Shown here piece by piece: positions 2,916 through 64,000 of a stretch of 64,000 nt of DNA. The position numbers and the translations under genes were made by a program. Within the stretch, counting starts at the first letter, position 1; every line of letters starts with the position of its first letter. This stretch comes from Amphiscolops sp. MND2022. Lineage: Eukaryota. The notes below the pieces were generated by a model. It had not been told where the DNA came from, did not search any database, and worked only from the letters and a program-made list of their open reading frames with translations. The stretch is from assembly GCA_964187785.1 (NCBI GenBank), contig OZ076409.1, forward strand, positions 69,318,001 through 69,382,000, written 5' to 3'.

Positions 2916-3273
2916 GATTATTTACAATTCAAACAGTTTAAAATTCAGAATCGACTCTTACATATCCACTGGAAAACACGAAAAGGAAGCTGCAACTCGA
3001 GTGCGAGAAATGACACTTACAATGACGCCAAAGCGAAACGAATTTGAGAACGAGCTGACAACTGCTTTGGTAATGGAAAATATTCCAATCGCGATCGCGA
3101 TTGGAATATTTTCCATTACCAAAGCAGTTGTCAGCTCGTTCTCAAATTCGTTTCGCTTTGGCGTCATTGTAAGTGTCATTTCTCGCACTCGAGTTGCAGC
3201 TTCCTTTTCGTGTTTTCCAGTGGATATGTAAGAGTCGATTCTGAATTTTAAACTGTTTGAATTGTAAATAATC
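2916..3273. repeat. Perfect spacerless 358-bp palindrome
   Basis: Centre ccaatcgcga|tcgcgattgg at 3094/3095; arms pair out to 2916/3273. The mirrored ORFs on both strands in the ORF track confirm the symmetry. Confidence 0.97.
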
Positions 3274-7567: not shown

Positions 7568-8694
7568 TGGGTTTTTGAAAAACATAAAACACTGGAAATC
7601 AAGAACGGTGACTGTACGCTCTTCGGAGGTTGTCATGGGAAAAAGTTCTTTTTTTTGAAATTTTTTTGTAACTGTCATAAAAAGTTTGGCGATAGTTTTC
7701 CTGACCAAACTAGCTAGATTCACAATTTTTTGAGTTTGCAGCTAAACAACTGAATGTTCAGTTTTGTCAAAATTGGGGTAAAAATTCTTTTGATTGAGTT
7801 CTTTCTCCACGAATCCAGGGCGGTCTATTCCAGGGGATTAGTTGCTCCATTGAGATCACGTGATTTTCTGATCTCCCAGATTTTTCTTCCTCCATCTCGA
7901 GAAGGCACAGCTGAAAAGAGAAACAAGGCAAGTTTTCTGCTTCCAAAAGAAAAGTTTCAATGAACTAGGACTGTTACAAGCATGTATTTCTAACTGATGG
8001 GGTTGTTTTCCGGTTTGGGTGGAACTACGGGTTGTAGTTGAGGCTTTCCTGAAATGAAATGCAATTGGGCATCTTTCACCGATAAATTCTAGATTTTTGA
8101 GTTATAGGAAAGGCTACATAAGGTTCGCTGAGCACCGAGATGATTTCCGCCCTTGTTTATTTTAACAACTACAAATTTTTGAGTCCCAAGTGTCACCAAT
8201 ATATTTACCTAAACTTCAAAACTTGCACGAAAAGTTCAAAATTTAGTAAAATGTTGACATTTTGGGCTCTTGTTTCCACTCAAAGGACTTTTCATTTTTT
8301 AAAATCATAATTCTGAAAAAAAATATTTTAGAGAAAATTTCACAAAGTTCAAAAGTTATATTCAAAGGCGAATTTTGTTGATCATTTCAATATAGTCTGT
8401 AATAACCGGTTACGTTATATCTGCATACCATGTTTCATCCGAAATATTTCAGGTCATATGCGTTGTTGTATCAAACACTGCAAACTCAAATTTACAAGAC
8501 GCAAAAAACAGCCCTACGTTTGAGTTTCATTCATATACGTTATTTCGAGAAAAATTTTTCTATAGTTCAATTTGAAAACATTAAACGTCATCGATCGAAA
8601 ATCGACCCCATTGTTTTACTGACTGAAATTTACAAAAAAAATTAGAAAAAAAGGCCACTACAGTGACAGCTAGAAAAACTTGTTACTGTAAGAG

Positions 8695-8902
8695 TGTGGT
8701 AGAGCACTTGTTGTACAGCTTGATAAAACAAAAGTGTGAAAATATTTAATTACACTATTTATTAACAACCTGTCAAAAATAGTAAAAGTGGCAAAAGAAA
8801 ACAATCTGCCAATACAGACAGTTACGCCATTCAATACAGTTTCTCACACTTCATCTTCTTTCGTCTATCTAGTTCTTTAGCCAATTCAGCTAGACTATAA
8901 CA
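8695..8902 (+). repeat. 5' LTR
   Basis: tgtggtagag...gactataaca, repeated at 13809-14016. Confidence 0.97.
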
Positions 8903-13797: not shown

Positions 13798-13808
13798 AGA
13801 GAGAGGAG
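13798..13808 (+). promoter_or_regulatory. Polypurine tract
   Basis: AGAGAGAGGAG abutting the TG of the 3' LTR. Confidence 0.9.
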
Positions 13809-14016
13809 TGTGGTAGAGCACTTGTTGTACAGCTTCATAAAACAAAAGTGTGAAAATAATTAATTACACTATTTATTAACAACCTGTCGAAAATAGTAAA
13901 AGTGGCAAAAGAAAACAATCTGCCAATACAGACAGTTACGCCATTCAATACAGTTTCTCACACTTCATCTTCTTTCGTCTATCTAGTTCTTTAGCCAATT
14001 CAGCTAGACTATAACA
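13809..14016 (+). repeat. 3' LTR
   Basis: 205/208 identical to the 5' LTR by eye; followed by TSD AAGAG. Confidence 0.97.
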
Positions 14017-19391: not shown

Positions 19392-19944
19392 AGACTATTT
19401 TAAAATGTGAACATTGACAAACAAATTCTCAAGAAAACCACCTTTCAAACTTCTGTCTAAAAATCAGAAAACTCGAACTTTGGGAAGAAGTTTCCGTCGA
19501 ATTTTGGAAAGACATTTCCGTCGAACTTTTTAGAACAATAGTCACAGAGTGTCAAAAATGCCCAAGAGGAATAACTTTCTAGGCTCTTAACCGAAAACTG
19601 GAATGCGGATGTCTAGTCAAATAGAAAAAATAGAAAAAGTTGCAAAGCGACAAAAACCCTATTGGCCCTTTTTTGATCCTGTTGTGTTTTTTTTAATTAA
19701 AAGTGTGAAGTGTGAAGCCCTGAAGTGTGAAAAAATCAAAGGGAGATTTTCGAAACCTCTGGGTAGACTTTAGTTTTAGGGTTAACGCTGCTAAAATCTT
19801 AGACAAACTTTTTATTGCGAAAATTTGCACAGTGCTGAAATATTATATGAAGAGATGACGCTTTCGTCAAGTTAGACTAGGTAAATGTTTAAAAATTACA
19901 GCAATCAGTGGTTGCGAAGCGAAATCACGTACGTCTGCTTCCTG

Positions 19945-20494
19945 CCCTGGTTGGAACTGCTTGAACTATTAACATGTTTTTGTAGGTTACCAACCTAATT
20001 TTCCATGATTGTATAAAATTTTCAAAGAAACGTCCATGCAACAAAACTTCACTGATTCGATTTAATTTTATCAAGCTGCCTATAAGATGCATCCTAAATT
20101 TGGCGGCAATTTTGCGCCGGAAAGTTTTGCAGGTTTCATTAAGACACCGTTCTAATTTTCGAAGCAGCTGAGACCGTCATCAATTTTACCGCGCTTTCAA
20201 TGCAAATAAACTTCAGTCACATTATAAGTTTCAAAGTTACGTCATATTCAGCGTGCTATCTGACTAACGGTTATAACATAAAATACTTACATGAGAAACT
20301 TTGCGTGAAAACAAAGTGATCGCGGTGGTGAAGAAGTGGAAATGTTTTCAGTTTTAATGAAATAGTGGAAGCTGCATTGTAATCCTACAAAATGTTTCCA
20401 TGCAGGCTCCCGGAATTTTCCACGTTTTGTAAAAAAAAATTAGCCTGCATGTTTCCATTTAGCATGTAAAATTTTCAAGCAATCTCGACTAGGG
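19945..20494. mobile_element. MITE copy 1 (CCC...GGG, TSD TG)
   Basis: Imperfect TIRs ccctggttggaactgcttg / caagcaatctcgactaggg; TG on both flanks; similar along its length to the adjacent copy. Confidence 0.85.
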
Positions 20495-20502
20495 TGGCAC
20501 TA

Positions 20503-21055
20503 CCCTGGTTGGAACTGCTTGGACTTTTTACATGTTTTTGTACGTTACCAAGCTAAATTTCCATGATTTTATAAAATTCTTAAAGAAATGACCATGCATT
20601 AAATCTTTACTGATTCGATTTAATTTTATCAAGCTGCCTATAAAATGCATCTTAAATTTGGCGGCAATTTTGCGCCGCAAAATTTTGCAAGTTTCATAAA
20701 GACGCTGTTCTAATTTTGAAAGCAGCTGAGACCTTGATCAATTTTACCGCGCTTTCAATGCAAAGAAACTTCAGTCACACTATATGTTTCAAAGTAGCGT
20801 CATATTCAGCGTGCTATCTGACTAACGGTGATTACATAAGGACTTTACATGAGAAACTTACGCGTGAAAACAAAGTGATCGCTGCGGTCGGTGAAGAAGT
20901 GGAAATGTTTTGAGTTTTAATTCAAATAGTGAAGGCTGCATTGTGATCCTACAAAATGTTTCCATGCACGGTCCCGGAATTTTCCATGTTTAATAAAAAA
21001 TTTGCCTGCATGTTTCCATGCAGTATGTAAGAAGTTCAAGCAATCTCGACTAGGG
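20503..21055. mobile_element. MITE copy 2 (CCC...GGG, TSD TA)
   Basis: Same TIRs as copy 1; TA on both flanks. Confidence 0.85.
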
Positions 21056-21881
21056 TAATGAACACAAACAAACACATGCGTTACCTCCAGGCCAAAATGT
21101 ACTTTTCACCAGCATCTAGTAGTTTAAGGCAGAATCAAACTCATCAGGAATATCTTAACTTTGAATGACATCACTTTAAAAAGCATGTACGGCGCGGTGT
21201 GAGTCGTGCCTCAGTTATGCTCAAAATGTGCAAAATTCATCAAATAGTTAACGAAATTCTCAAAATGCAAACCTCTCACAATGCCACAAAACATTCGATA
21301 AAAACTTATTGGGCTTAGGAAAACTTCTTTCGAAACAGAAACTCAAAGCGAGAACCACCTTAGGGTTTAGAAAACTTGTCGCGAAATCTCAAAGAGTGTC
21401 GAAAAATCCACATTTAGCTTCATAACTCAAATAAAGTGTTTTCAATAAAATTAAGGACCGTTTCAATAATTTTGCCACTCTTCAAAACTTATCCGTTTTG
21501 AAGAATTTTTATCGTTACTTCGACCAAATTGAGAAAAAACCTCAAAATTATTATAAAAGTCGCGTTTCCGCTTCATCAAACGTCGATTAAAAGTCAGATT
21601 GAAAAAGATTAGCTCCAGCCTCCATCAACCAATAAAAGAGGGCAAGGTAACAGCAAAACTTTGGGAAATAACGAAGTGTTACAAATGTTTTTTTTCTCGC
21701 AAGAATAAACAATTTACAACAGACTTATCTAATAAGTACTTGGGCCATTGTATTCAGCTAAGCTCTATTCTTTTGAAATTACTACTGATACTTATTATCA
21801 ACGTATTATCACGCATATTTCGTTGCATCGTTGTCCTACAAGATATTTAGGGGTAGGTACTGAATGAGGTTCAACACTCAC

Positions 21882-45597: not shown

Positions 45598-45897
45598 GGG
45601 GAACATGGCGTAGTGGTTAGAGCATTCGGCCTGTACTGGGGCGGTATCAGGTTCGAATCTCTCTCAACTCACCATTGTTGGTCCTTAAGCAAGTCCTTCA
45701 TCCCTAGCTCAGTGGTATGGTCAATGACAAAAAATAACGCATTGGGCGGAGAAAAGCAAAACAAAAAGAGCAACGGTGAGCAGTCAGACCCTTGTGACCT
45801 TGAGCAAGTCACTTTGAAACCACAGCTTCAAGTCCACCATTACTTGACCCCTTGGCTGCAAATACGGTACCATAGCTTGCTATGGGGAGATAGTACC
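45598..45897 (+). mobile_element. tRNA-derived SINE remnant(s) with CORE-like segments
   Basis: A-box TGGCGTAGTGG (45606), B-box GGTTCGAATC (45650), CORE-like GTCCTTAAGCAAGTCCTT (~45681) and GTGACCTTGAGCAAGTCACTT (45794). Confidence 0.65.
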
Positions 45898-46076
45898 TGT
45901 CGCGATTTTCGCTATTTATAGAGTTTGTTGAACACTCTCTAGACCTCAGGCTACTATTTTCCCGTGTAAAAATGTTCTAGAACGATTTTCCCATGTTTTC
46001 TGCGAATTTCCTACTTCGGCGTTCCATTGTAGCCCACTGGACCTTCGGTCCTTTAATGTGAAATCGGTCGACCTTG
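45898..46076 (-). repeat. Displaced ~180-bp fragment of the element's own gag
   Basis: Near-identical to 54323-54505 (gctatttatagagtttgttgaa...aatcggtcgaccttg). Confidence 0.93.
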
Positions 46077-46120
46077 ACGGTTTCACGCACTTTTCACTCT
46101 CTCTTCAGAGTGATTTTCAA

Positions 46121-46152
<32 letters not shown>

Positions 46153-46155
46153 TCG
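46077..46155 (-). rRNA. ~79-nt fragment of 28S (LSU) rRNA, not a functional gene
   Basis: Minus strand CGAGACCGATAGTGAACAAGTACCGTGAGGGAAAGTTGAAAATCACTCTGAAGAGAGAGTGAAAAGTGCGTGAAACCGT matches the conserved eukaryotic LSU segment between expansion segments D1 and D2. Confidence 0.92.
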
Positions 46156-47916
46156 CTGGACCAATGCCCCTACGCAGCTTATGGAATCCAAAGCCCCCCC
46201 GTTTTGAAGAGCTGTCTCTGAAGACCATAATGCATAAGAAGGGGTACAGTGTGTTCGGAAAAATAGACTTCTTCTCGGTTGTGCAATTTGTCATCGTGTG
46301 TCTGGGAGGCTGTCTAGATCAGGACTGGATGTTGGTGTCCCCTGAATTGTCGAAGGTTGGTTGGAGACTTTGTTCTTTGCATCTAGCTCCTAGGATTTTA
46401 GACGGAGCCCTTCTTTTGTTTTCAGGCAATTAGATCATGCCAATTGGACATCAATGGTCTACCAGTCCTCTGCCAAGAACTGTTGCGTCACAGGAGCAAA
46501 GTGGTTGCTTTCTTGTCGAAAAGCACCCCTACCCAAGAAGGCACAGGAGTCCGCAAACAAGTAAGAGTTCTCTGGCTCCTTAGACCTACGGTCCAATGCA
46601 GTACCTCAACTGAGTGTTTCTTTTCAGCCCCAGAGCTTAGAATGGTCTCTTGTTTACGACGACTTCTTTCCGAGTAGACTCGAGTTGTTCTACCGATTAG
46701 TGCGCGATTGTTAGTGTTACCATTCATAGTTTCGCCATATACTATTGGGTTCAAAGTTTTCACTCTTTCTTTTATCGTCACCAGCAGTTTCACCACCAAT
46801 CTCAAGCGGCGCCGTGATCGAGGCTTCCATGTGTATCGAGAGCTAGGTCAATAACTCTTCAAGCTGGGCAGACGTTGCGTCAGTTCCAGCAGCATTCCTG
46901 AAGAAAATGATTTTCCCGGGGTCTACAGTCTCGTTATGGCTGACACTAAGGCTCTGTCAGTAGCTGACTTCCTGTCCCGGTCCAAATTGAGCGAAAAACT
47001 AGCAACTGCATGCAAGCTGAAAGCGGAAGCCGAGATGAGTGAGAAGAAAAACGAAAAGCTGACTCTAGCTGAAGTTACAGAGAACATTAAAGCTGATTTT
47101 GGACGCACTGCTCGTAGTTATGTAGTCACCCTATTCGGCACTGCTCAGAAGCTCCAGAGATTCACCAGCGATATAGTGAGAGGACTGGGTTCTTTTGATT
47201 TGGACGTGATGTTGGTCGACCCAATATCTTTGGCGACCTTTTGTTTCAAGGAGTTGTTTACCAGTTTCCGTTTGCGAGGTGTCTTGCTGGCAGACGAAGA
47301 GACGATTTACTTCGAAGAGTATCTCTCATTTCTTGACGAACTCCGCAAACTTCACCCCAACATCTCCTAGCCAAAACTGCTTATTCCTGACGTTATTGAG
47401 TTTGTGTGTGGACAGGAATCCTACAGGTCTCGGTCTTATCTCATGAGGATTTTCAGACTCAGTTGTCTTTGTCTAGATGATCCTCGTGTCTCCTTTCCCC
47501 CTGTCAAGTTTGGGACAGTCCATACTGATGACCCAAAAAGTCCAATGTTCGATGTTGTTACACCATTGCAATCGTACCTCAGCAATGTTGCCCGCGGGGT
47601 AGAAGTTTTCACCTCAGAGTCTTCGATCTCCAAGTTTCTCGCTCTGGAACCGACTTTTGGGTCAACTGGGCTAAGGGACATATACAGTCCCTGGAGTGAC
47701 TTGGATAAGTTTGGATGGGCTGAGATCAATGACGTCATCAATAGTGTGACGCCCAAAGGCCCGAAGGTCTCCGCCGCAGAGGATGCCCCTAGTACCAGTA
47801 AAGCCACATCGTCTTTTATGGTGCCAAAGCCAGGGAAGAGGCGTAGTCACTTGATTTCAGATGAAGAGCTAAACAAGTCCGCTGAGCGTTTAAATGCTAG
47901 TTTAGATAAGTCTTAA
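46155..47916 (+). pseudogene. 3' part of the antisense hAT-transposase-like accessory gene (copy A, 5'-truncated)
   Basis: Duplicate of 60505-62263; phase-0 introns 46356-46425 (gttggt...tttcag) and 46561-46627 (gtaaga...tttcag) join the ORF fragments. Confidence 0.7.
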
Positions 47917-48102
47917 TTGTACCATATGTACAATTGTCATTTTAGTTTGTTGTACAGTGCTTCTAAAACTTTTCGTATAGACACTTTGGGATTATATTTA
48001 GTGTTCAGTTATTTACTGTATTCTTTGTCTTTTATTCAGTCAAGTCCCGCAAAGATATTATTCTGCAATTGTTTAATCGGGACAGTTAATTTACAATTCT
48101 GG

Positions 48103-51100
48103 CTAATATCTGTATTCGTCGGTGTAGTTGGGGGTTGGGTTAGGTCGTAGGTTAGATTTTCCTCCCCTGGGGCTTTCGTTTTCTACAATCATATCGTCTT
48201 CATCATCTAATACTTCGGGCACGATAGTATCACTCCCTCCTGACGATTGTTGATCGTCAATCCCATCATTTATGCGTTCTGAACGTGTTTTTTCAAGCGG
48301 AGCGAATTCATCATTTTCTTGTGGCCCGGTGGACCTAAGGTCCACGTCGGTGAAAATTTCGTCTGGCGCTCTGGCGTTATTTTCTTGAGGCCCGGTGGAC
48401 GTAACGTCCACGTCGGTTAAAATTTCGTCCGGCGCTCTGGTATTGTTTGCGTAATCATTAGAAGTGTCTAGCGCTTCTCGACATGTAGGAATTGCGGTTT
48501 CTTCAGTGGAATTGGGAAATTCACCAAATATGGTATTCCAAGTGATGACATATAGGTCATCTTGCGGAATATAAATTTCATTGTCCGGTTGCAAATTCCC
48601 TTCCGGTCTGGTGTCTTGTAGGACTGTGTTCGGTTCATAATTGCGTAGTCTGATGCGGTGTAAAATTTGCGTTTTGTTAGAATTCAGTTTTCTGACTATA
48701 TAGTTTTCATTTGGCAAGACTTTTTCTACAATATAGGGTCCTGTCCATCTGTATTCGCGAAATGGAATTTTCGATCTCTGGTGGTCGGCGATAGGTTGCA
48801 GTATAAAACAGTAATCGTTCTGTTTCAAGGGGGCCGCTTTGGCCTTCCGGTCGTAATATTCTTTGTACTTCAAATAGGATTGCATAATGTTTTTCTTTGT
48901 TGAATCAAGCAAAATTTGCGTCCGGCGCTGCAATTCATCTGCAAAGTCTGTAGTTGGTAGGACTTTCGGGTTTGGATTAAGGCCCAATTTGTGATCCAAT
49001 ATATTATACGGAATTCGTCCGTGAAATATTCTAGATGGTTCACAACCTAGGGTAGCGTGATAGGTCGTATTATAATTTAATACGGCTAAAGGCAAATATT
49101 TGTGCCACTGTCGCCTGTAGTCCCCTGAGGCCATCTTGAGGTTTGTTTTGAGACTGGCATGGGTACGTTCTAATTTGCCAATTGTTTGCGGGTGTTTTGT
49201 AGTTGCGCATTTTATGTGAATTCCGAGAATTTGAGCTACTTCGGCGACCAGTCTGGACGTAAAAGCCGTCCCTTTATCCGTGATCAAGGTAGTAGGCAAA
49301 TAGGTATGTTTAGTCATTATGTCTATAATAACCTTTGCCGTGTTTGTGGCCGAAGCGTCAGTAACTGGATATGCAAAAAGATTTCTTGAAAACAAATCCA
49401 TTGCAGTTATGATGTTTTCATAACCTCCGCTGGGGGGCAGGTTCGGTAACAAATCAATTTGAATTGCATCTTCCGGACCTAAGTCCCATTCAGGCAAGTT
49501 AAGCAATTCGGGAGTTATGGATGAGTTTGGGACTCTTTTATCTTTAATGCAAATTTCGCATCCTTGAACCCATTTTTTAACAATTTTTGCAATGCCAGGG
49601 TAGTAATATTTTTGGCGATTTTCGACGAGCATCTTTGGATATTCCAGGGTGTTTATTAGCTTTGCCGTGTAGGGATTCAAGTAGTTCATGTACCAGATGT
49701 TTAGGTAAAAGCACTTGATTGTATTTGACAGCTCCTGTTTCCTCAAAATACTGTCTAGTAATAATTTCATCCATAACGGACAGTCGGTCCATTTGGCGAC
49801 AGTAATGTTGGTAACGAGTATCTTGCAGGAGGATGGTCTCAGAATAACTTTCTTTCAGTATTTTTAGGCGCAATTGTTGCAAAATAACGTCGTTGTTTTG
49901 CTCCACTGCTATAGAGTTCGTGTAGGATAGTTTTTGAAGCGTGGAGAGTTTGTGATAGTCACTTTTGTGTGTAGTAAATTTTTCGAATGAAATATCAGGT
50001 AATTGATTTGATGGATGGTCCCTAGCGTCTTTTTTACGCTGTAAAATTTGTTCTTCCGTCTCGTCATCATCCTCTGTATAGAAGATTTGTTCCTCTTCCG
50101 AAACTCCGGCCGATTGGACATGTAGTTCGATCGGTGTTGTAGGAATATCTTCTCTGATTCTGAGGATTAATTTCTCTTTTGAAGAGATCTCCAGACGCGA
50201 CAGGTTATCAGCCGCTGTGTTGTTTTTTGCCGGGGATGTGTGCTATTGTGAAGTTGAACTGGATCACATAATCACAAGCATTCGATAATGTCGGCGGAAT
50301 AATTTTAGTTTGAAAAAATTGTGTGACGGACTTGTTGTCTGTGAGTATAATCACCGGTTTTGGGGTTCCCCAAAAGATATGTCCAAATTCCTTGAAGGCA
50401 AAGAAAATTGCTAAGAATTCCTTGGCATAGATGGACATTTTCAATTGGGTAGGACTAAAGGTCTTGGATCCATAAGCTACTGGTGCGAAAGTTTTCCTCG
50501 TAGAAGTGTACTTCTCGAGTGGATCGTCTTCGATGAGAACTGCGTACCCTGCAGCCGAAAAGCTGGCATCGGTCATAAGGGCTATTTGCTTGTTTGGTAA
50601 GGGTTGTTTGAGTGCCAGTTCGCAACATCGATCAAGAGCCTTGTTTATCTCGGTAAATTTTTCCAATAGGTCCGGTGTTACCAGGACTTTTTCATCTTTA
50701 GTGAGCAGTTTGAAAAACGGCGTTAGTTTTTCTGATAGTCTTGGGATGTAGTTTCGGTAGTAGTTCAAAAATCCCAAGTAACGCTGTAGTGCTTTCTTGG
50801 ATTTCGGGAATTTCGTATTTTCTAGGAAATTTTGGACCCGTGGTCTCTGCGGCTTCACTCCAGCAGGAGTGATGGTGCGTCCCAGAAAGTCGATTTCCGT
50901 TGCGCCAAAATGGCATTTATGCATCGTAAGCTTGAGACCAGCGTTTTGCATGCATTGGAATGTGGCCCTCAGGTTGTTGATGAGTTGTTCAGCATCGTTA
51001 GCAGCAATGCCAATATCATCAACATATTGGGCGCATTGGTCTGCTTTGATGACTTTGTCCAAGTATTCGCGCATGAAACTAGAGAAGGCCGATAGGGCTC

Positions 51101-53202
51101 TGCTGAGACCCTGTGCCAATCTTCTGTCCGCGAAAATTCTGCTGGCAAAATTGAAAGCAAGCATTTCAATGGACCGTTGGTCCGCCATTTGTAGGCAATG
51201 GTAAGCTTGCGAACAGTCCAATTTACAGAATAGCTTTTTCCCAGCCATGTGTTGGGCCGCGTCTGTAAGCGTACTTACTGGATGGTTATTGTTGATGTAA
51301 TCATCCGATATCAAGTTGTTTATTTTACGCAAGTCGACTAAAAGTCGCAGTTTGCCATTGGGTTTCTTTCGTGCAAAAATGGGGCTTGCGTACTTAGAGA
51401 ATGGGAGTGTTGTAATGATCCCATAGCGATGTATCGAGGCTAGTTCCACAAGGATGTCTTCTTTGAGGTTAATTGGGGTTGGTAAACTTTGACTGTAGGC
51501 CGGAGAGTGGTCTTTCGGGGTCAATTTGACCTTGAAGTCTTCGTTCATGCCGATATCAAATCGATGTCTTGCGAATATATCATGGAATTCAACAAGTAGG
51601 TCTTCTATGCGGGCTATTTCAGCAGGTTGAAGCATAGAGTCTGTCCAATCAAAATTGGATAGGAATTGACGTCTCGACTCAGAGTAGTCCTGAGGATTAC
51701 GTTTTTCCAATTCCTGGAGGTTGATCAGTTCTGACAAAATCCGTTTTTGAATCGGGGTATGATGCTGAGGGTCCCCAGGGTCCTCTGGTGTTGGAAACCA
51801 GTAGTTTTCCTTGAAGTCCTCAGGCTTAGTAGATTTGATCAAGCTGCTTGCATAGTAAGCAGCGTTTTCAGGATTGTCCCGCAAAAGGTGTGGTCATCGG
51901 GTCAATAGGTTTGACATATTTCATCTGTTCCGGTGTAAGGACAGTGAAATTAGCAACTTGTGTACCTCTTTTGAGGGTATGGGGACTGTCGGTAAAATTG
52001 TTCAGGTGAACGGATACTTGACCATTGGTCAATGTGACTAGAGCAGCGCAGAAAGCAATATCGCCATCATCCGTAAGGGTGTGGCTCGGTTGAAGGATCC
52101 CGGTAACTGTAGTATCCTCGTACAGTTGTGAAGCCATGAGGACCCAGTGTCGGTCACTAGGTGGGATGGTTACATCCTCTCTAATGCAAATGGGTTCCAT
52201 GAAATTTGTATATTTGTGAACTGCAGTTTTGAGCTGCATTGAGAAGAAAAGATAATTTAGGACGCCTTGTCGCATGTCCAGAATGGTGTTATTCCTTTGA
52301 AGGAAGGAAAGACCAATTAATGGACTGGTGAGTTTCTCCATCACTATAAAGATTTCATAGAAATCTATGTCGCCGACTTCAAATTTCAATTCGACGGTGC
52401 TTTTAGGATTTTCCAGCTGTTCGTTTGCAACCATTATTTGGAAGTTGGGAGCTGGACCCTCTTTAATAATAGACTGAGGGGCTAATAATCGGATTTTACG
52501 TAGATCAGCTTCAGGGATTGCGCTAGATAGAGCTCCCGTGTCTACAAGGCCATCTAGTGTTAGTTCGCCAAAATCCATTGGAAAGTAGAGCATTCGTTGT
52601 TTGTATTTGACGCCAAGATTGGTAGCCAGCGGCACGTAGTCCGGTTCCCCTGTTCTGGTGACCAGGGTGCTCACATAGCGTGCCGCAACGGCTGTGGCCA
52701 AGGAGACCTGTGGTCCCTCATGGTGAAAGTCATCACCGACATTGGAGTGAGTGGTTTGATGGACGGGCTGTGCGCCATGTTGCCATGTGTCAACTCGTGC
52801 TTTGGTAAGAACTGTATTTAGGGCTTGGTCAGTTTCAAAAGAATCTGGTTCTATATTCGAGTTCTGTTTGTTAAAATTGTGGTAGAAGTACAGATGATGT
52901 TGATTGTAGCAGTTAGCCTCCCAGTAGGGGTCAAAACCATAGTCGGGGTCAGGATAGTATGGGTTATAGTCATCAATGAGGGGTATAAGTCGTTAAGTAG
53001 TAGTATCAGTTTGTAGTCTGTTGGACATAGAGTCCAAAGTGGTAAGAAAATTAGGTGGAGTTTTCATCTGCTGGTGCCAGTCAGCTGATGAACTTTCTTT
53101 AAGAGCTGTATAATACTCAGTGTAATATATATTTGGAGGGTCTGATATTATGTACTGTCGTACACGGAGTTTTTCATGTATTTGGAGTCGCGGCAAATCT
53201 AG
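48103..53202 (-). pseudogene. pol: pol (PR, dUTPase-like linker, RT, RNase H, integrase with GPY), several frameshifts/stops
   Basis: LVDTGA; LRLLVDLR, KLDCSQAY, QYVDD; MTDAS; H...H/CEIC zinc finger; QIDL, ITDKG, GKLER; WTGPY. Confidence 0.95.
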
Positions 53203-54962
53203 TTTTTTGGATTCTTTAAGATGGACGTGGTTTGTGTATTTTTCGCGTCTTCTTGGCTGGTGGACTTATCGGTGGCCGTGGTGTCATCCAGTTTAAGGTT
53301 TTTGGGCTTGAGGTGGGCTCCAGCGCCTTTCCAACATCTTTCCGCCGGGTGGTTCGATTTGTCGCAAGTTGGACATTTTGGATATTCTTTCTTGGTATCC
53401 TGTCCGTCGTTGCGGCGTTGTTCCTCCTTTCTTTTAAGTTTGCGGCAATCGTCTTTGACATGTCCAGATTTCTTGCAATTGTTGCAAGTAATGTTTGGAT
53501 CAATGCCATAGGAAAGAAGGCCAGTTCCCGGTCGTGTTGCTGTAGGGGCAGTGGACATTGTTGGTACTGGAATGTCGTCCCCCTCCTCAAGTCCATTGAG
53601 CTCAAGTTCTCGTTCTAGATGGGTGACATTTTCCTCATAGGTGGCGTTTTCAAGTCTAGCCATATTGACGGAGCGTTTCATTTTTGGAGGCAACTTGGCA
53701 TAGATGAGACTATCGATCATGGCTTGGGCGTTCTCGCCAAACGCTTTTTCAGCTCCTTGGTTTAATTTTTGAAGGAAGTCGGGTAGTTTCATGGTGTTTG
53801 GATCAAACACCAATCTGTGCCATTTGTGTTTGGCGGTCGCCTGGGACTCAGGTTTGACGTATTTCCGACGAAATACAGCTAGAATGTCTTCCAATGTTTG
53901 CCTGTTTGCCGTATTGATGTTACGGAAAGTTTGTAGGGCATTTTTTCGCAACAGTGAATGAAAATGATTGATTTTCATTGTTTCGGTCATATCAGGTTGC
54001 ATTTTTATCATTGTGTGAAAGAGATCTTCAAAAAGTTCGAATTTCTCTGATTTGCCGTCGAAAGTCAGTGTAGTCGTGCTGACTGGGCGTACCATCAGTG
54101 TTTGTGCTGATGGACGGTTGTTCATGCCGACTAGTACTTCTGCAAGACGGTTAATGGGATCAGAAGAAATAGTTGGTGTTGTGGTCTCAGGGACCTGGGG
54201 AATTGTATCCTGAGACTCGTCATTGTTGGAATTTTGACGTTGCAGGGGATCTCGAGATAGCATGGGACGTCCAGTGAGAAACTCGGGAACCATATGTGGG
54301 GTAGGTTTGGCTCCTGTCACCATGTCGAGATTTTGTTTGCTATTTATAGAGTTTGTTGAACTCTCTCTAGACCTCAGTCTACTATTTTCCTGTGTAAAAC
54401 ATGTTCTAGAACGATTTTCCCATGTTTTCTGCGAATTTCCTACTTCGGCGTTCCATTGTAGCCCACTGGACCTTCGGTCCTTTAATGTGAAATCGGTCGA
54501 CCTTGGGCTAGGATGTGGCCCGTTGGACTCCCGGTCCACCATGGTGAAAATAGGTCTCCCCTGCATTTCTAGTGAATTTTGGATGGAAGGAAGCACTGTA
54601 TTTGTTATTGCAGCTGTAATTGCTTCCTTAATTTGGGAATTCACACCAGTTTTATTTTCATTGAGTTTTCTAGACATTTGATTGGAAATTTCCTCGCTTA
54701 TCAACCTAGAAGTCTCAATTGTGATTTCACTGTTTTCCCTGCTGTTGGTATTAAGTAAGGACCTAAAATCTTCTATAACATTTGAGCTTTGTTGTGGTCA
54801 GCTAGACCCTGAGTCCAAATTCACTTCATTTTCACTAACATTATTCTCTTCATCTTCTCTAGAGTAACTTCCAAGCATTATGTCAACATTTTCTACATCG
54901 GACAGCATGTCTAACTGTCTAGAACGACGTTCTTTAGCCTTTTGCTTTCACGTGGAAGGCAT
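53199..54962 (-). pseudogene. gag: gag with two CCHC knuckles; two in-frame stops near the 5' end
   Basis: ATG at 54962 is in frame with ORF 53199-54704; TFDGKSEKFELFE, CNNCKKSGHVKDDC, CPTCDKSNHPAERC. Confidence 0.9.
53202..53208 (-). promoter_or_regulatory. Putative -1 ribosomal frameshift heptamer A AAA AAC
   Basis: CCA AAA AAC TAG at the gag stop; the -1 frame continues as LDLPRLQIH into the pol-side ORF 52993-53196. Confidence 0.75.
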
Positions 54963-55140
54963 GAGAAGGGGATTTGAGTTTCACAGTCAATTGTAAATAT
55001 CAACTAACAAGATAATCCAAATCAACAAAGTATGTATCAGCAGAGTTTTAAACTCAAAGTTCAGTATCGTGACAATATTATATCGACTTGTTTGTATCAA
55101 GATTGTGAAAGTTTCTGTCCCAGCTCTCCAGTGTTCCCGC

Positions 55141-55148
55141 TATTTATA
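55141..55148 (-). promoter_or_regulatory. Candidate TATA box upstream of gag
   Basis: TATAAATA flanked by GC-rich bases, ~180 bp upstream of the gag ATG. Confidence 0.4.
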
Positions 55149-55460
55149 GTTTGGGTGGGGTTACACACAGAATTATGCGGGTCATGGTTCTAAAAATAGC
55201 AATAGATGGGGTTTTAGGTCAGTACTAGGGACATTACGTCACTATTTCATCATGTTTGTAAGGACAAAAATAGCATCAAAGAGAAGCGGCTAAGGGTTGT
55301 AGCTGGAGATTATGATGCCATATAAATATGCATGGAGGAATATTATTATGCCTGAATATGCTATTTACATGTTTATATTTCCAATAATAACACTTCATGT
55401 CATTAGAATAATCACAAACAGCGTGATTGGCAATTACGCCAAATCGGACGTAACGTCCAT

Positions 55461-55472
55461 GCGGCGTCACCA
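55461..55472 (-). promoter_or_regulatory. Candidate PBS (tRNA-Trp-like)
   Basis: Minus strand ...TATACA AT TGGTGACGCCGC; resembles the Trp PBS TGGTGACCCCGA and follows a CA + 2-nt spacer. Confidence 0.5.
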
Positions 55473-55474
55473 AT

Positions 55475-55956
55475 TGTATAGTTAGTTCGATTTGATTGGT
55501 TAATATAGCACTCGACGTTGCGTACAATCAGCCACAACAACAGTACATTTGAACACGTTTCCTTACTGCGCTTCAATTGCATTCTAATACATCATTCAAA
55601 TTGATCATTTTACCTTGCTAATTCCAATTCATTTGGTACATTACTATTTCAACAATAATCAACAGGTATATCAAGCACAAACTAACTATAATATTAAGCA
55701 ACGGTAAATTACATAAAGTAGAGTGTTTTGTGATTAGTTTTAACACAATTGTTTGATGAGGCCGTATCGACCTAAGGTCCTTTATGTTTTGGACGCAGTT
55801 CTTCTATATTTGCCTCAATTTGAGTGAGGCCGTCCGTACCATCGGTCCATTGTTGTCAAACCTTCTAAATAGGGAGTACTCCTGGCGGGGGGTTAGATAG
55901 ATCGTCTACTGAAGGGATTTGGTAGTAATTGCCGTCACAGGCGGCAGCCTGCGACA
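55475..55956 (-). repeat. Candidate single LTR shared by the two tandem units
   Basis: Bounded by the candidate PBS and a purine run AGGGGGAG|TGT at 55957-55964; TGT...ACA ends. No second copy in the window, so unverified. Confidence 0.3.
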
Positions 55957-56851
55957 CTCCCCCTGGGACTAGAATCACACTGCCGGCTTTCATTCCGGCT
56001 TGAAAAGCATTTCTCCTGCGAATCTTTTGAATGTAATTTTCCTCAGGGATGTGTGTTTTCTCTAAATATCCCAAAGTAATCTCTTCTTGAATAGCCGCGT
56101 AAGACTTACCACACACTGTACATCCTCCATATTGGATATAGTTGGGGGTTCCACAAAATCCGCTCGCACTAATTGTCATCCCGGAAATGTGGGGGTTTTT
56201 AATCCATTCACTTTCCTGACCTTGTTCTTCAGGGTATTCGCCATAATACTGTGCGACTGAAGGCCCTTGTTCCTCTAACGGTGGTGACAATGGGGAATAA
56301 GGTACTGGTTCCAATCCACTACACTGGGCAATCTGGTGCCGCGAGTCTCCCTCTTTATATGTCCGTTGGGGTGGGTTCCCAACAAACCATTCAATCAGGC
56401 TATCGGATGGATCCGTGGTTGACGCCACTGATCCGGGTTGTCCATATTGCGATTGAGTTAGGTCGTACTCGTTAGCATCAAATTCAGTCGTCATTGCGCG
56501 TCCTCCTGCTAGTTGTGGTGAGAACATCGGGTTTTCTCTATAGCACGCTATAATTTCAATATCACTGTCGCACCCATCGTCTTGTTGAGAGTCATCTGGT
56601 ATAGAAAGCACGTCCACTTCCATATCCTCGTCAGAAGAATTAAAAACTTCGCTCACTAGCGGTCGGATGAATTCTTCTACAATAAATTGTAGTGACATCT
56701 CAGCTAGATATCTTTCCAGAATAAGATTTTGGCAATTTTCAATTGTGTTGCTTGATCGTAGTAAGGATTTGAGTTGAATGATTTGCTCTAGCCCGGCAGA
56801 CCTCAGGTCCCCTTTCAATAAAATTGCGGGAAATTTTAAGCGGGGTAACAT
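55865..56851 (-). CDS. Orphan accessory ORF (acidic/Pro-rich, CxxC motif GCTVCGKSY)
   Basis: Uninterrupted 328-codon frame within the repeat unit, same strand as gag-pol; true start may be the later Met (MSLQF...). Confidence 0.7.
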   Translation of the reverse strand: MLPRLKFPAILLKGDLRSAGLEQIIQLKSLLRSSNTIENCQNLILERYLAEMSLQFIVEEFIRPLVSEVFNSSDEDMEVDVLSIPDDSQQDDGCDSDIEIIACYRENPMFSPQLAGGRAMTTEFDANEYDLTQSQYGQPGSVASTTDPSDSLIEWFVGNPPQRTYKEGDSRHQIAQCSGLEPVPYSPLSPPLEEQGPSVAQYYGEYPEEQGQESEWIKNPHISGMTISASGFCGTPNYIQYGGCTVCGKSYAAIQEEITLGYLEKTHIPEENYIQKIRRRNAFQAGMKAGSVILVPGGVSQAAACDGNYYQIPSVDDLSNPPPGVLPI

Positions 56852-57821
56852 AACCTGGAGTTTCCTCAGATTTTCCTCGGATTCCTTTTAAGTAAAGTTA
56901 TAAGTTTTCACAAATAGTAGCAGAAGTCAGCTGAAAAGCTTTTCAATTGGTCCTTGAAGGCCTATCATCGTGTTTGTCTAACAACTAGTGAGTTGTTAAT
57001 TGCCAGTAAGAGTGTTTACCAATGTAAAAGACAGGTAAAGAATAATTCGATCAAAGACCGACTGTCCGGCAGGCCTCATTCAAGATAAGACTAATGACGT
57101 TTCATTAACTAATAATTCGCATGAATGAATAACTAAATATGGTAAAGGAGATGAAAACTGTGAAGAACGTAACTGAGTTGTACCTTTCAATTGCGAAATA
57201 AAGTGAAATTTCATGGCTTTCACTGGCAGGTTCAAGACATGAGAAATGTGATAATGAAATGAAATGATGGTGAATGGTAACTAATTGTTAATGTACTAGC
57301 CACGACATTTGTAATTTAGCGTCTCATAAAAGTCTCAATAGTATTAGTTAGACTGTTAGTCTAGTTGGGTAAAAGAGCGTAGACAGGTGAGTATTGTATT
57401 GTGAATGATATACGAATGGAAGTATAAGTGCTTGAGGTACAGTAATCCCAACCGTCGTCATTTCTCTAACTACAAGTTACTTTCACTGGTTACTTCATCG
57501 ATTCGTTCAAGGCGCTTCCCTCATCATCGGAGTGAACAGAACACGAGGACCTACAGTATCCCTGGCCTCAACCAATTGTTTATCCAGATTCTTTAACCTG
57601 AGCAGGTTACAAACGCATCCCCTTCGACAGCTATTCCAAGCAAGAAATCTGCTTCCCCACTATGGAGATAGCATCAGGTTGGTTCTTTAAATGTGTCTAA
57701 GTTGAGCTTGATCAGGGTTCAACTTTTGACTAGATTCACTTCCTCCATTTTAAAATGTTTTCACGTTGAAACATTACTTCGAACATAACTTACTTCCGGA
57801 AGATTGTCAAAATGCGGCAAA

Positions 57822-60800
57822 ATGGATTCATATTCAGGAAGTACACCGCGTAAATTTATCTCTTTCTATTTAGAACAAGAGACTAACGGCCAACAAACTC
57901 AGAAATTAGCTGAGGTTGAAGAGACTGACAGGAACGAATTTTCAATCCCTGATACTGCTCATGATTTTCCAACCAGCAGTCAACAATCGTCGAGTGAAAT
58001 CAAAGACAACGAGGTCAGACAATTACAGGCTCCCGACCCCTCGCACAGCAACAGTCGAGTAATAGCAGAGGGCAAGGACATTGAGCTCTGCCCGTCTCAG
58101 ACATCTGAACTTCCCAAGAAGGACCAGCCAATGACTGAAGCCATGGACACTGAGTGCAACCAGCCTCAAACATCAGAACTTCCCAAGAAGGACCAGCCAA
58201 TGATTTTAGCCATGGACACTGAGTCCAGTCAGCCTCAGATTCATGAAGCCCCTTCCAGTAGCCAGCATGTCCAAGCAGAAGTTGTGCAAATTGGGATTAG
58301 CCAAGATCAGACTCCAACAGAGGTTTCGCCTTTGTCTAAGCTGCTTTGTTCTGACGGAAGCGAATCAAATGAGAGCTGCCAGGCATTTTTCACTCGCAAA
58401 ATGCAAGAACTTGGTGCTGAGACCAACGAGGAGGGAACCCTAGCAGACCATGATGCCTCCCAGAAGGAGAGTGAAAGTGAGTTAATAACTGTCTTTCCTG
58501 GCCAAGAGCAAAAGGAGGGACCAGACCGACAGTTTCATCAGGTTCCTGCTGTAGCATTCTTAGAAACTGTTACAGCGTACTCGGCTTCAAGCAATTCCTC
58601 TGCCATTGGGAATTCTAAGAAAAGAGCCAAATTAGTACGACCTGCTACTCCCTTGCGCCCAACTTTGCAGGACGATATCCAAAGTGAGCTTTCCATAGCT
58701 TCTTCCACAACATCTATTGGTCTCCATCATGGCTTTGGTGAATCAGAGCAACCGATCCGAATGGGTAGCAGTTCTGATTATGGGCTTGAGACCGATGCTG
58801 AGTCATCTAATGCAGGTGGTTCTACCATGGCTGTTGCCCTAACTTCCGGGAGATACAATCCCTTGATCGAAGTCGACAAAGCCTCCAGTCAACCAGCAAG
58901 TTTACCTACTGCTCCAACTGGTAAACCTGAGCCGCTAAAAGTCAGTAGCCGAGCTCTATTGAAAGAGTATTTTGCTAAAACTGAACCGGTTGAGTTGCTT
59001 CGAGGTCACTCTACCATAGCCTTGACTGAAGATCAGATATCTAGCGTACTGAGGGTCGTAGCCGATGAGACTGCCAGGGCTTCTTACGACATGCTCGAGA
59101 ATCTGGTATACCGCGCCAGCAGGCTTAGCTTAAACACCTCGGTACCAGGCAGGAGAGTCTCCAAGAAGTCCAACGTACGTAGCCTTTCGCAGGGATCTGA
59201 TCAAGGCGAATCCGAAACTGAAGCGGGAAGTGACACTAGTGGTGGTATCCGTAGTGATGACGACTTCGGGAGTATTGGCTACCCTTATGAGCACTCCGAA
59301 ACTGAAATAATTGGCAGACCACCTACTGCACAGCTCATTCCTGGGTGTGGCTCTAATGACCAAGCGTCCCCTGACTTAGAGTTCAGCGTCAATAGTCCAG
59401 GATCTCAGACCCTTGCAGCGCTACAAAGAGAAGCCTTGCAGGATCAGAGTTCACGTCGGGGCAAGCCCAGCAACCGACGCATTCCCGCATCGAGAGGACG
59501 TACTAGGAGGCCGATTACTCGATCCTGTAAGATCATGAAGGAGGCGTTTTTTAAAGGTATGGAGTGGACGAAGACTTTTGTGTCAGGGCCAGTCGATCCG
59601 CGATGGAACCCTTACAAATTTTTTTGCCAAATTTGCAAGGCAAACATATCAATATAAGGAAAGGGAGCCCGAGAAGTCTTGCGACACCACTCAACCGAAA
59701 AGCACTTGAGGAAAGACCAAAGGTGGAGGTTCGAGCATCTATCCAAGGTAGTCCCAGTTACCCGCAAAGTTGTGCATCAAGTCAGGGGTAAAGACGGCAA
59801 ACTCCTCACACCTTACCAGCTGGAGTTAGAATACCCAAAGTTCAAGGATGTACCGTTGGTGGATATCGGCAAGAAGCTACCATTTTATGACGAGTTCATG
59901 GCGGGTACTGATTACATGGCATCTTCTTCGGGCGACCGGGCAAAAACTCAGATTTCCATTCTGTGCCGATTTCTCACCCATTATGGGGATATTGATGTGC
60001 TCAAAGTATTCTGGAGCGACGTGGGTGTGATTGTGAACCACCAGGCACTGTTCACAGACTTCGATTGGAGCAGGGAAAGACTTTCAGTTAGTATTTTTAC
60101 TTTACTCAGACGGGTACATTGTTAGAGTATTGTAGTGGACCTAAGGTTCTTTCAGCCTCATGCTACGCGAGGTCGCCTTACTAGTTAAATTCTGACATAA
60201 AAGGCAAGATTGTGTTATAGGTCATCTTCCATCACCTATTCCTTGAGATGATGAATGACATTGGAAGCCATGTCGTCGCTGCCTCTGAGTATTCATTGGA
60301 ATTCGCTCAAGAAGGAGTTTTCCTGTTGGTATTTATCCGATATTGGCCTGATGACCAAATGTGTAGGGTCCTCTTGAAAAGGACCGGACGTCTCCTCGGC
60401 CTCACTCAAGCTGCGGTTAGGCTTGTTTCCAACGTCATGGGCATATTCTCAACGAAGCCCCACTTAGTCAGTTGTACTGGAACAACGCACCGAACTATCG
60501 TCTTGCTGGACCAATGCCCCTACGCAGCTTATGGAATCCAAAGTCCCCCCGTTTTGAAGAGCTGTCTCTGAAGACCATAATGCATAAGAAGGGGTACAGT
60601 GTGTTCGGAAAAATAGACTTCTTCTCAGTTGTGCAATTTGTCATCGTGTGTCTGGGAGGCTGTCTAGATCAGGACTGGATGTTGGTGTCCCCCGAATTGT
60701 CGAAGGTTGGTTTGAGACTTTGTTCTTTGCATCTAGCTCCTAGGATTTTAGACGGAGCCCTTCTTTTGTTTTCAAGCAATTAGAACATGCCAATTGGACA

Positions 60801-62263
60801 TCAATGGTCTACCAGTCCTCTGCCAAGAACTGTTGCGTCACTGGAGCAAAGTAGTTGCTTTCTTGTCGAAAAGCACCCCTACCCAAGAAGGCACAGGAGT
60901 CCGCAAACAAGTAAGAGTTCTCTGGCTCCTTAGACCTACGGTCCAATGCACTATCTCAACTGAGTGTTTCTTTTCAGCCCCAGAGCTTAGAATGGTCTCT
61001 TGTTTACGACGACTTCTTTCCGAGTAGACTCGAGTTGTTCTACCGATTAGTGCGCGATTGTTAGTGTTGCCATTCATAGTTTCGCCATATACTATTGGGT
61101 TCAAAGTTTTCACTCTTTCTTTTATAGTCACCAGCAGTTTCACCACCAATCTCAAGCGGCGCCGTGATCGAGGCTTCCATGTGTATCGAGAGCTAGGTCA
61201 ATATCTCTTCAAGCTGGGCAGACGTTGCGTCAGTTCCAGCAGCATTCCTGAAGAAAATGATTTTCCCGGGGTCTACAGTCTCGTTATGGCTGACACTAAG
61301 GCTCTGTCAGTAGCTGACTTCCTGTCCCGGTCCAAATTGAGCAAAAAACTAGCAACTGCATGCAAGCTGAAAGCGGAAGCCGAGATGAGTGAGAAGAAAA
61401 ACGAAAAGCTGACTCTAGCTGAAGTTACAGAGAACATTAAAGCTGATTTTGGACGCACTGCCCGTAGTTATGTAGTCACCCTATTCACCACTGCTCAGAA
61501 GCTCCAGAGATTCACCAGCGATATAGTGAGAGGACTGGGTTCTTTTGATTTGGACGTGATGTTGGTCGACCCAATATCTTTGGCGACCATTTGTTTCAAG
61601 GAGTTGTTTACCAGTTTCCGTTTGCGAGGTGTCTTGCTGGCAGACGAAGAAACGATTTACTTCGAAGAGTATCTCTCATTTCTTGACGAACTCCGCAAAC
61701 TTCACCCCAACATCTCCTAGCCAAAACTGCTTATTTCTGACGTTATTGAGTTTGTGTGGACAGGAATCCTACAGGTCTCGGTCTTATCTCATGAGGATTT
61801 TCAGACTCAGTTGTCTTTGTCTAGATGATCCTCGCGTCTCCTTTCCCCCTGTCAAGTTTGGGACAGTCCATACTGATGACCCAAAAAGTCCAATGTTCGA
61901 TGTTGTTACACCATTGCAATCGTACCTCAGCAATGTTGCCCGCGGGTAGAAGTTTTCACCTCAGAGTCTTCGATCTCCAAGTTTCTCACTCTGGAACCGA
62001 CTTTTGGGTCAACTGGGCTAAGGGACATTTACAGTCCCTGGAGTGACTTGGATAAGTTTGGATGGGCTGAGATCAATGACGTCATCAATAGTGTGACGCC
62101 CAAAGGCCCGAAGGTCTCCGCCGCAGAGGATGCCCCTAGTACCAGTAAAGCCTCATCGTCTTTTATGGTGCCAAAGCCAGGGAAGAGGCGTAGTCACTTG
62201 ATTTCAGATGAAGAGCTAAACAAGTCCGCTGAGCGTTTAAATGCTAGTTTAGATAAGTCTTAA
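57822..62263 (+). pseudogene. Antisense, intron-containing accessory gene: disordered N-terminus, BED-like zinc finger, hAT-transposase-like remainder (copy B)
   Basis: ~610-codon open frame running into FFCQICKANISI*GKGAREVLRHHSTEKH; phase-0 intron 60087-60220 (gttagt...ctgac...ttatag) joins RERLS to VIFHHLF; YSLEFAQEG...LVFIRYW resembles hAT FSLxxDE...LxIFIRY; further introns ~60706-60775 and 60911-60977. Confidence 0.7.
58097..58240 (+). repeat. 69-bp in-frame tandem repeat (QTSELPKKDQPM..AMDTE..QP)
   Basis: Two copies visible in DNA and protein. Confidence 0.85.
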
Positions 62264-62449
62264 TTGTACCATATGTACAATTGTCATTTTAGTTTGTTGT
62301 ACAGTGCTTCAAAAACTTTTCGTATAGGCACTTTGGGATTCTATTTAGTGTTCAGTTATTTACTGTATTCTTTGTCTTTTATTCAGTCAAGTCCCGCAAA
62401 GATATCATTCTGCAATTGTTTAATCGGGACAGTTAATTTACAATTCTGG

Positions 62450-64000
62450 CTAATATCTGTATTTGTCGGTGAAGTTGGGGGTGGGGTTAGGTCGTAGGTT
62501 ATATTTTCCTCCCCTGGGGCTTTCGTTTTCTACAATCATATCGTCTTCATCATCTAATACTTCGGGCACGATAGTATCACTCCCTCCTGACGATTGTTGA
62601 TAATCAATCCCATCATTTATGCGTTCTGAACGTGTTTTTTCAAGCGGAGCGAATTCATCATTTTCGTGTGGCCCGGTGGACCTAAGGTCCACGTCGGTGA
62701 AAATTTCGTCTGGCGCTCTGGCGTCATTTTCTTGAGGCCCGGTGGACGTAACGTCCACGTCGGTGGAAATTTCGTCCAGCGCTCTGGTATTGTTTGCGTT
62801 ATCATTAGAAGTGTCTTGCGCTTCTCGACATGTAGGAATTGCGGTTTCTCCAGTGGAATTTGGAAATTCACCAAAATTGGTATCCCAAGTGATTACATAT
62901 AGGTCATCTTGCGGAATAATAATTTCATCGTCCGGTTGCAAACTCCCTTCCGGTCTGGTGTCCTGTAGGACTGTGTTCGGTTCATATTTGCGTAGTCTGA
63001 TGCGGTGTAAAATTTGCGTTTTGTTTGAATTCAGTTTTCTGACTATATTGTTTTCATTTGGCAAGACTTTTTCTACAATATAGGGTCCTGTCCATCTGTA
63101 TTCGCGAAATGGAATTTTCGATCCCTGGTGGTCGGCGATAGGTTGCAGTATAAAACAGTAGTCGTTCTGTTTCAAGGGGGCCGCTTTGGCCTTCCGGTCG
63201 TAATTTTCTTTGTACTTCAAATAGGATTGCATAATGTTTTTCTTTGTTGAATCAAGCAAAATTTGCGTCCGGCGCTGAAATTCATCTGCAAAGTCTGTAG
63301 TTGGTAGGACTTTCGGGTTTGGATTAAGGCCCAACTTGTGATCCAATATATTATACGGAATTCGTCCGTGAAATATTCTAGATGGTTCACAACCTAGGGT
63401 AGCGTGATAGGTCGTATTATAATTTAATACGGCTAAAGGCAAATATTTGTGCCACTGTCGCCTGTAGTCCCCTGAGGCCATCTTGAGGTTTGTTTTGAGA
63501 CTGGCATGGGTACGTTCTAATTTGCCAATTGTTTGCGGGTGTTTTGTAGTTGCGCATTTTATGTGAATTCCGAGAGTTTGAGCTACTTCGGCGACCAGTC
63601 TGGACGTAAAAGCCGTCCCTTTATCCGTGATCAAGGTAGTAGGCAAATAGGTATGTTTGGTCATTATGTCTATAATAACCTTTGCCGTGTTTGTGGCCGA
63701 AGCGTCAGTAACTGGATATGCAAAAAGATATCTTGAAAACACATCCATTGCAGTTATGATGTTTTCATAACCTCCGCTGGGGAGCAGGTTCGGTAACAAA
63801 TCAATTTGCATTCATCTTCCGGACCTAAGTCCCATTCAGGCAAGTTAAGCAATTCGGGAGTTATAGATGAGTTTGGGACTCTTTTATCTTTAATGCAAAT
63901 TTCGCATCCTTGAACCCATTTTTTAACAAGTTTTGCGATGCCAGGGTAGTAATATTTTTGGCGAATTTCGACGAGCATCTTGGATTTTCCAGGGTGTTTT
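62450..64000 (-). pseudogene. pol: Integrase end of pol, second tandem copy (partial)
   Basis: Near-identical to 48103-49654; frameshift near 63812. Confidence 0.95.

Follow-up and report, generated by a model that had tools for sequence, protein, structure and literature searches.

A 28S rRNA patch in a three-LTR Ty3/gypsy array of Amphiscolops sp., probably left by an early reverse-transcriptase template jump

The window studied here is a 64,000-nt stretch of contig OZ076409.1 of Amphiscolops sp. MND2022 (positions 69,318,001 to 69,382,000), numbered from its first letter; positions beyond it are given as genome coordinates. A 24.2-kb array, in the order LTR stub, 28S rRNA, partial unit, LTR, unit, LTR, sits inside a SINE of a young and abundant kind. 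The left part of the SINE lies at 45598..45897 (plus strand), and the SINE continues past the array from G000:C1:69388116 onward. The array is bounded by a target site duplication (TSD), GTACC, at 45893..45897 (plus strand) and, beyond the window, at G000:C1:69388116-69388120. Both copies of the word have C at the fourth base, where T stands in all nine SINE paralogues examined; the duplicated word therefore belongs to this very site. The stub begins exactly at the LTR terminus TGTCG, at position 45898. The original prediction held that the left end had neither LTR nor TSD, and that the array had been fixed without integrase, by target-primed or break repair. Neither view survives. The outer ends are integrase-competent, with TG...CA termini and a 5-bp TSD around the whole array, and we conclude from the LTR terminus and the GTACC duplication that integrase inserted the array. 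Other family copies likewise show 5-bp TSDs.

The stub (45898..46076, minus strand) is the U5-side end of an LTR, that is, the outer 183 nt of the 3' LTR with its terminal CA in element sense, and in a self-comparison of the window it matches 54323-54505 at 95%. The same match had earlier been read as about 180 bp of gag. The match holds and the gag identity does not: the segment is LTR nt 1-183 and, because the gag frame begins inside the LTR, an LTR end was mistaken for gag. Beyond the 28S patch is the partial internal region of unit 1 (46159..54322, minus strand), with gag-PR-RT-RNaseH-IN broken into several frames. Element sequence does follow the rRNA, as had been proposed, with 46143-49654 equivalent to 60494-63999 at 97.8%. 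Missing from unit 1 are 6.0 kb that correspond to 54506-60508, among them the polypurine tract and the greater part of an LTR; the host piece thus replaces element sequence and does not merely interrupt it. At its right edge unit 1 has a primer-binding site (54311..54322, minus strand), whose 12 nt are the complement of the tRNA-Leu(CAG) 3' end with CCA added. The complete middle LTR follows (54323..55956, minus strand; 1634 nt, TGTCG...CGACA), adjoined by a polypurine tract (55957..55970, minus strand). The unit 2 internal region (55957..64000, minus strand) continues outside the window, where a second primer site and then the right LTR (G000:C1:69386479-69388115) follow. Unit 2 also carries, at G000:C1:69383772-69383928, a fold-back inverted copy of 130 nt and, after it, a 27-nt filler with a local template, as well as 96-nt and 250-nt deletions. 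Elsewhere the window holds a perfect 358-nt palindrome (2916-3273), 211-nt direct repeats that are 98.6% identical (8692-8902 and 13806-14016) and a 558-nt tandem pair (19942-21056).

Comparison with DNA beyond the window and with other copies defined a family of elements of about 16 kb with 1.64-kb LTRs bounded by TGTCG...CGACA. Primer-site/LTR junctions of the wider family number 435 in the genome. Pfam domains lie on the minus strand in the gypsy order, PR-RT-RNaseH-IN after gag; RVT_1, RT_RNaseH and rve score above the Pfam cut-offs and the protease just below. The element is, judged by its sequence, a Ty3/gypsy LTR retrotransposon, with TG...CA LTRs, a tRNA primer site, a polypurine tract and a 5-bp TSD. 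It shares with that group the order gag, protease, RT, RNase H, integrase, and differs from it in its 16-kb unit, its opposite-strand accessory frames and a gag frame starting within the LTR. The gag ATG is at LTR nt 640 of the middle LTR, and a TATA-like box at nt 826. In the window the gag frame apparently opens about 640 nt into the LTR (54323-54962), so that part of the LTR is coding and the gag frame takes in the primer site. The frame from nt 640 is open into gag in two of the four copies checked. The element RNA likely starts near LTR nt 800. A reading of the stub as natural strong-stop DNA is not favoured, since the TATA-like box and the nt-640 frame would put the RNA start at about nt 800. 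An AATAAA at LTR nt 334 was dropped as a polyadenylation signal, being present in one of 58 LTRs.

Three accessory frames accompany the gag-pol genes, at 46855-47916 (plus strand), 57789-60571 (plus strand) and 55865-56887 (minus strand); the two large ones, 46855-47916 and 57789-60571, are antisense to gag-pol. The accessory frames are retained in distant relatives at 35-60% identity, and one has a zinc-finger-like motif. They match no Pfam family above its cut-off. Their best atlas match scored 0.83, to a group with zf-BED in 18% of its members, which we treat as a lead only.

The 28S patch (46066..46158, minus strand) is identical to the animal's own rDNA at 91 of 93 bases, in agreement with an earlier call of about 79 nt of 28S rRNA; 46077-46142 is rRNA alone, with no element overlap. 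It has one private change, at 46113. Against Rfam LSU_rRNA_eukarya the patch matches on the minus strand with E 0.029, under the gathering score, at which the whole window gives zero matches; the rDNA source loci of the same genome are LSU rRNA by Rfam. The Rfam strand and the strand of the ORFs and domains agree, which upholds the earlier statement that the rRNA piece is sense with gag-pol on the minus strand. The patch is without intron, tail or other RNA-only mark, and its orientation and context bear indirectly on an RNA template.

At the left joint (46066..46075, plus strand) the LTR and 28S share a perfect 10-nt overlap, GGTCGACCTT, which contains the palindrome GGTCGACC. The base after GGTCGACCTT is G, as in 58 of 58 LTRs, where rDNA has A in seven of seven copies. 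A shared ccttg at 46072-46076 had been suspected at this joint; there is indeed a shared word, longer than proposed, and the final G belongs to the element. In the rRNA-acceptor orientation GGTCGACCTT is the longest exact word common to LTR nt 1-800 and a 2.9-kb 28S probe, and it is one of ten such words of at least 9 nt. Among random LTR/28S joints, a perfect overlap of at least 10 nt arose in 9 of 2,000,000. The right joint (46143..46158, plus strand) is a 16-nt imperfect overlap, with one bulge and one mismatch, with element 60494-60508, and in the chimera it carries the rRNA letters. Imperfect microhomology had been described here, correctly. This joint ranks first among 254 3'-anchored sites in the 15.8-kb unit, with a score of 10, the next best scoring 7. 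Microsimilarity is beyond chance at both switch points. Against a jump, a better unanchored 28S/element match (17/18), about 10 nt further along the rRNA, went unused, and no pause hairpin or RNA structure at the jump site was supported (z = -0.77).

Both overlaps retain the letters of the left parent, from which we infer a strand growing from left to right. Minus-strand cDNA of a retroelement starts at the primer site, as is established (in the part of PMC6894440 that treats it). Given a primer site at each full LTR, such cDNA would start at the outer end of the stub and run along the plus strand of the window, and left-to-right growth is the direction of minus-strand cDNA from the primer site, on an rRNA-sense template. 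A left-to-right template jump had been predicted, and both joints fit it well. The first template had been taken as internal gag; it is instead the U5-side LTR end adjoining the primer site.

We asked how old the parts of the array are. The two full LTRs are separated by 31 differences in 1634 sites (1.9%). Over about 7.7 kb, compared with eight other copies, unit 1 has 78 private substitutions, unit 2 has 73 and 16 are shared, a divergence of about 1% per lineage, the same as that of the LTR pair. The stub, middle LTR and right LTR have no private change in common in 183 columns, the left outer LTR being comparable over 183 nt only. The equal ages of the units and the LTR pair, and the lack of a common private LTR change, indicate that the tandem arose with the insertion. 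On these ages we reject late unequal crossing-over as its source. The private substitutions of the stub (3/179) and the patch (1/82) fit the insertion age and cannot date the joining event. The units also differ at 44 diagnostic sites in one subfamily haplotype block (49751..50352, minus strand): 44 of the 61 sites with both alleles in other copies cluster in this block of about 600 nt, inside which unit 2 matches another subfamily. The block suggests two different templates; later gene conversion could be an alternative.

We consider it probable that reverse transcriptase left its template early, bridged via 28S rRNA to a second element RNA, and that the product was integrated directly. The weights given to this and to the competing readings are judgements and were not computed. 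In the first step, cDNA started from the RNA 1 primer site would extend for 183 nt. Its 3' end would then pair with 28S rRNA through 10 nt and a terminal G:U wobble, and 82 more bases would be copied. The new end would pair imperfectly 6 kb inside RNA 2 and be extended across pol, gag and primer site up to the 5' end of that RNA. An ordinary first strand transfer to the unused 3' end of RNA 1 would follow, and a whole second unit would be copied. Each packaged RNA would serve once, with the tandem resulting from the error. In the fifth step, the least supported, the plus strand would give a plain far-end LTR through a transfer that departs from the usual course and takes place at the inner primer site. 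After a standard second transfer both ends would carry the same 10 kb; this duplication is absent, so a non-standard route is needed for the far LTR. The far-end LTR might also come from a plus strand on another cDNA, or from an early deletion between repeats. Last, integrase would place the 24.2-kb product into the SINE. One process thus covers stub, patch and tandem.

The 28S junction is found in one of the 67 LTR ends examined, some of which are duplicates of one insertion; it is not part of the family consensus. Two of the 67 ends leave the LTR at nt 183-185, the present array and a copy at G000:C2:54560111-54572708. The latter is independent, with its own TSD, ACTAG; its left LTR ends at nt 185 and joins the interior via a short overlap and an 8-nt filler, and it is without a polypurine tract. 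A third apparent stub (L134) proved to be a 143-nt deletion. It is doubtful, though worth stating, that the palindrome GGUCGACC, which lies some 180 nt away from the primer site, marks a recurrent early exit of minus-strand cDNA, and that 28S rRNA, by carrying the same word, serves as a bridge to the second packaged RNA. If that were true, premature first-strand jumps bridged by host RNA would be a direct cause of three-LTR tandems and of subfamily mixing. Another three-LTR array, with one TSD and no patch, lies at G000:C10:59364408-59396250, and the copies at C2:15698019-15716348 and C1:9032267-9048753 have internal jumps and duplications.

Among the 18 copies compared, the closely related ones, to which the assessment of private stretches was confined, showed no private insert of at least 20 nt besides the patch and the 27-nt filler of unit 2. 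Three rDNA stretches, a probe that lacks the 3' portion of 28S and a large part of 18S, were blasted against all fetched family loci and found just this patch and a scrap on C7. The C7 scrap (G000:C7:55153642-55153779; L039:1410-1550) comes from nearly the same 28S region and sits, antisense to gag-pol, in a distant relative. It is older, is broken by about 30 nt and adds about 150 nt without large loss, like a plain insertion. The original prediction also offered the jump as a route by which the family could capture foreign genes. The present data lend this extension no support: the route copies RNA in sense, the large accessory frames run antisense, and close copies hold no other foreign insert of at least 20 nt.

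Copied primer tRNA has also left traces. The tRNA-Leu 3' end plus CCA has 16 exact matches, which are five clustered genes, one match after another type of end, and ten primer copies. The ten copies, 22-44 nt long, abut a TGT start, and eight of them are beside family-related proteins. Three fragments are cut off at 44 nt, immediately 3' of the base that follows the anticodon, a position at which a methylated G would block reverse transcriptase. Examples are at G000:C2:43014665 and C7:20817642 (L218-L224, L230-L232), one of them joined straight to integrase sequence. The copies probably record faulty plus-strand transfers in which the primer was read through. Their place at TGT starts indicates that aberrant transfers with copied host RNA get fixed in this genome. 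A long tandem of tRNA-Leu-like 3' ends, with hundreds of matches spaced at about 240-300 nt, runs from G000:C8:35587800 onward.

Pieces of 28S are also dispersed in the genome. Among the 43 listed 28S matches (40 of 84 candidates scored), 34 are short scraps outside long rDNA copies, which indicates that rDNA or rRNA pieces enter the genome via other routes. Family-like proteins lie within about 4 kb of 7 of 31 scrap loci (30 fetched loci and the C7 scrap). The C7 scrap shows that repair-type capture of 28S is real in this genome. A repeat of about 990 nt at six or more loci (L177-L181, L183; e.g. G000:C10:37617522 and C6:21315679), 93-99% alike, opens with about 145 nt of 28S, ragged at the 5' end and joined on the 3' side at a single fixed point. 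It is possibly a 28S-headed non-LTR or SINE-like element. Several rDNA copies break 15-19 nt beyond the 28S joint of this repeat, a break that we take to resemble the R2 insertion site. The same 28S piece (probe 123/135-327) occurs in five copies inside a repeat that they share (G000:C4:84337172, C5:22627695, C6:73916265; L171-L173).

With 28S scraps dispersed in the genome, it is possible that the joints come from later DNA repair instead of a reverse-transcriptase jump. On that view a three-LTR tandem that had inserted intact would later have lost 6.0 kb at a double-strand break, which was then bridged, by microhomology-mediated repair, with 82 nt taken from rDNA or an rRNA cDNA. 28S scraps are common here, one of them an antisense insertion inside a relative, templated fillers lie within the same array, and a three-LTR array can exist without a patch (the C10:59364408 region). 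The fillers in the unit 2 fold-back and in the C2 copy resemble the scars of a repair polymerase. Repair from the left broken end would, moreover, yield the same strand direction. We nonetheless regard later repair as unlikely: two rare events would be required at one locus, and neither the sense orientation nor a break just past the start of cDNA synthesis would be explained. Further, a second copy breaks 2 nt away, a coincidence that a rough estimate from about seven LTR breakpoints puts at a few percent.

A second alternative is that a defective cDNA or circle made by reverse transcriptase (stub, 28S, partial unit) recombined via its 183-nt LTR end into a resident copy. Such recombination would avoid the odd second transfer and account for the two templates, and tandems of Tf1 are reported to form independently of integrase (PMC11042837). 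The crossover would, however, be confined to 183 nt though 8 kb of homology was available, and the equal ages of the units and the LTR pair mean that it must closely follow insertion. We judge this very improbable. As for the raw data, contigs from one read run (share 0.05) reach the SINE and rRNA parts only, leaving the element uncovered. A contig running from 45895 into the far flank was rejected as an empty allele, since SINE paralogues read identically, and neither an empty allele nor a second assembly of the locus was among the matches listed (two listings of 40). An assembly or library chimera of an LTR end, an rDNA read and an element copy is scarcely credible: although the joints are without a spanning raw read or second assembly and rDNA is a deep repeat, the stub, patch and unit 1 have private changes absent from the other copies examined, the TSD and SINE close correctly 24.2 kb apart, and unit 1 is a distinct copy that requires a left end.

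In sum, the early exit from the template, bridged by 28S rRNA, is the reading we prefer. The array is one broken copy showing a known type of copying error, a variant of LTR-mediated capture (patch repair) that is real in the assembly; no gene capture or function is shown. If our reading is right, one locus records the primer, the early exit, the rRNA splint, the second genome, the transfer and the integration. It would also mean that elements with a short stub at one end can still integrate, and it would connect host-RNA patching with three-LTR tandems, which are usually treated apart.

Several known systems resemble the array in part. As described in the main text of Tan et al. 2016 (PMC5131818), LTR-mediated retroposition uses short shared sequences at the switch points (median 6 bp), and there, as in our reading here, a host piece replaces part of the element through a double template switch followed by insertion by integrase. 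The donor here is rRNA, a word absent from that main text, and here the first switch would be inside the LTR at the start of the cDNA and the product is a tandem. In retroviral patch repair, as treated in the relevant passages of PMC4997597, packaged non-coding RNAs such as 7SL are patched into recombinants; a jump between non-homologous templates is splinted by a third one that shares microhomology by chance, as we propose here. The present case differs in being a germ-line fossil of a gypsy retrotransposon with a 28S splint. Our literature search found no rRNA patch in an LTR retrotransposon, older virology papers and supplements being outside its scope. An rRNA patch may already be described in the primary patch-repair papers, and we claim no priority. 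The third likeness is to three-LTR complexes (Sabot and Schulman 2007, PMC1950507; plants, PMC11899658), in which the middle LTR is shared and one TSD marks one event. The array agrees with them in its single TSD, its like outer LTRs and units of the same age as the insertion. The passages on such complexes in these two papers leave the mechanism open or involve no host RNA, and the plant survey (PMC11899658), in the part concerned, leaves the origin of the tandems open. Unlike those complexes, the present array has an outer LTR reduced to a 183-nt stub that an rRNA bridge joins to the rest, and this would give the tandem a concrete cause. What is new is in the detail: the rRNA splint, a jump made when minus-strand synthesis had barely begun, and the tandem outcome.
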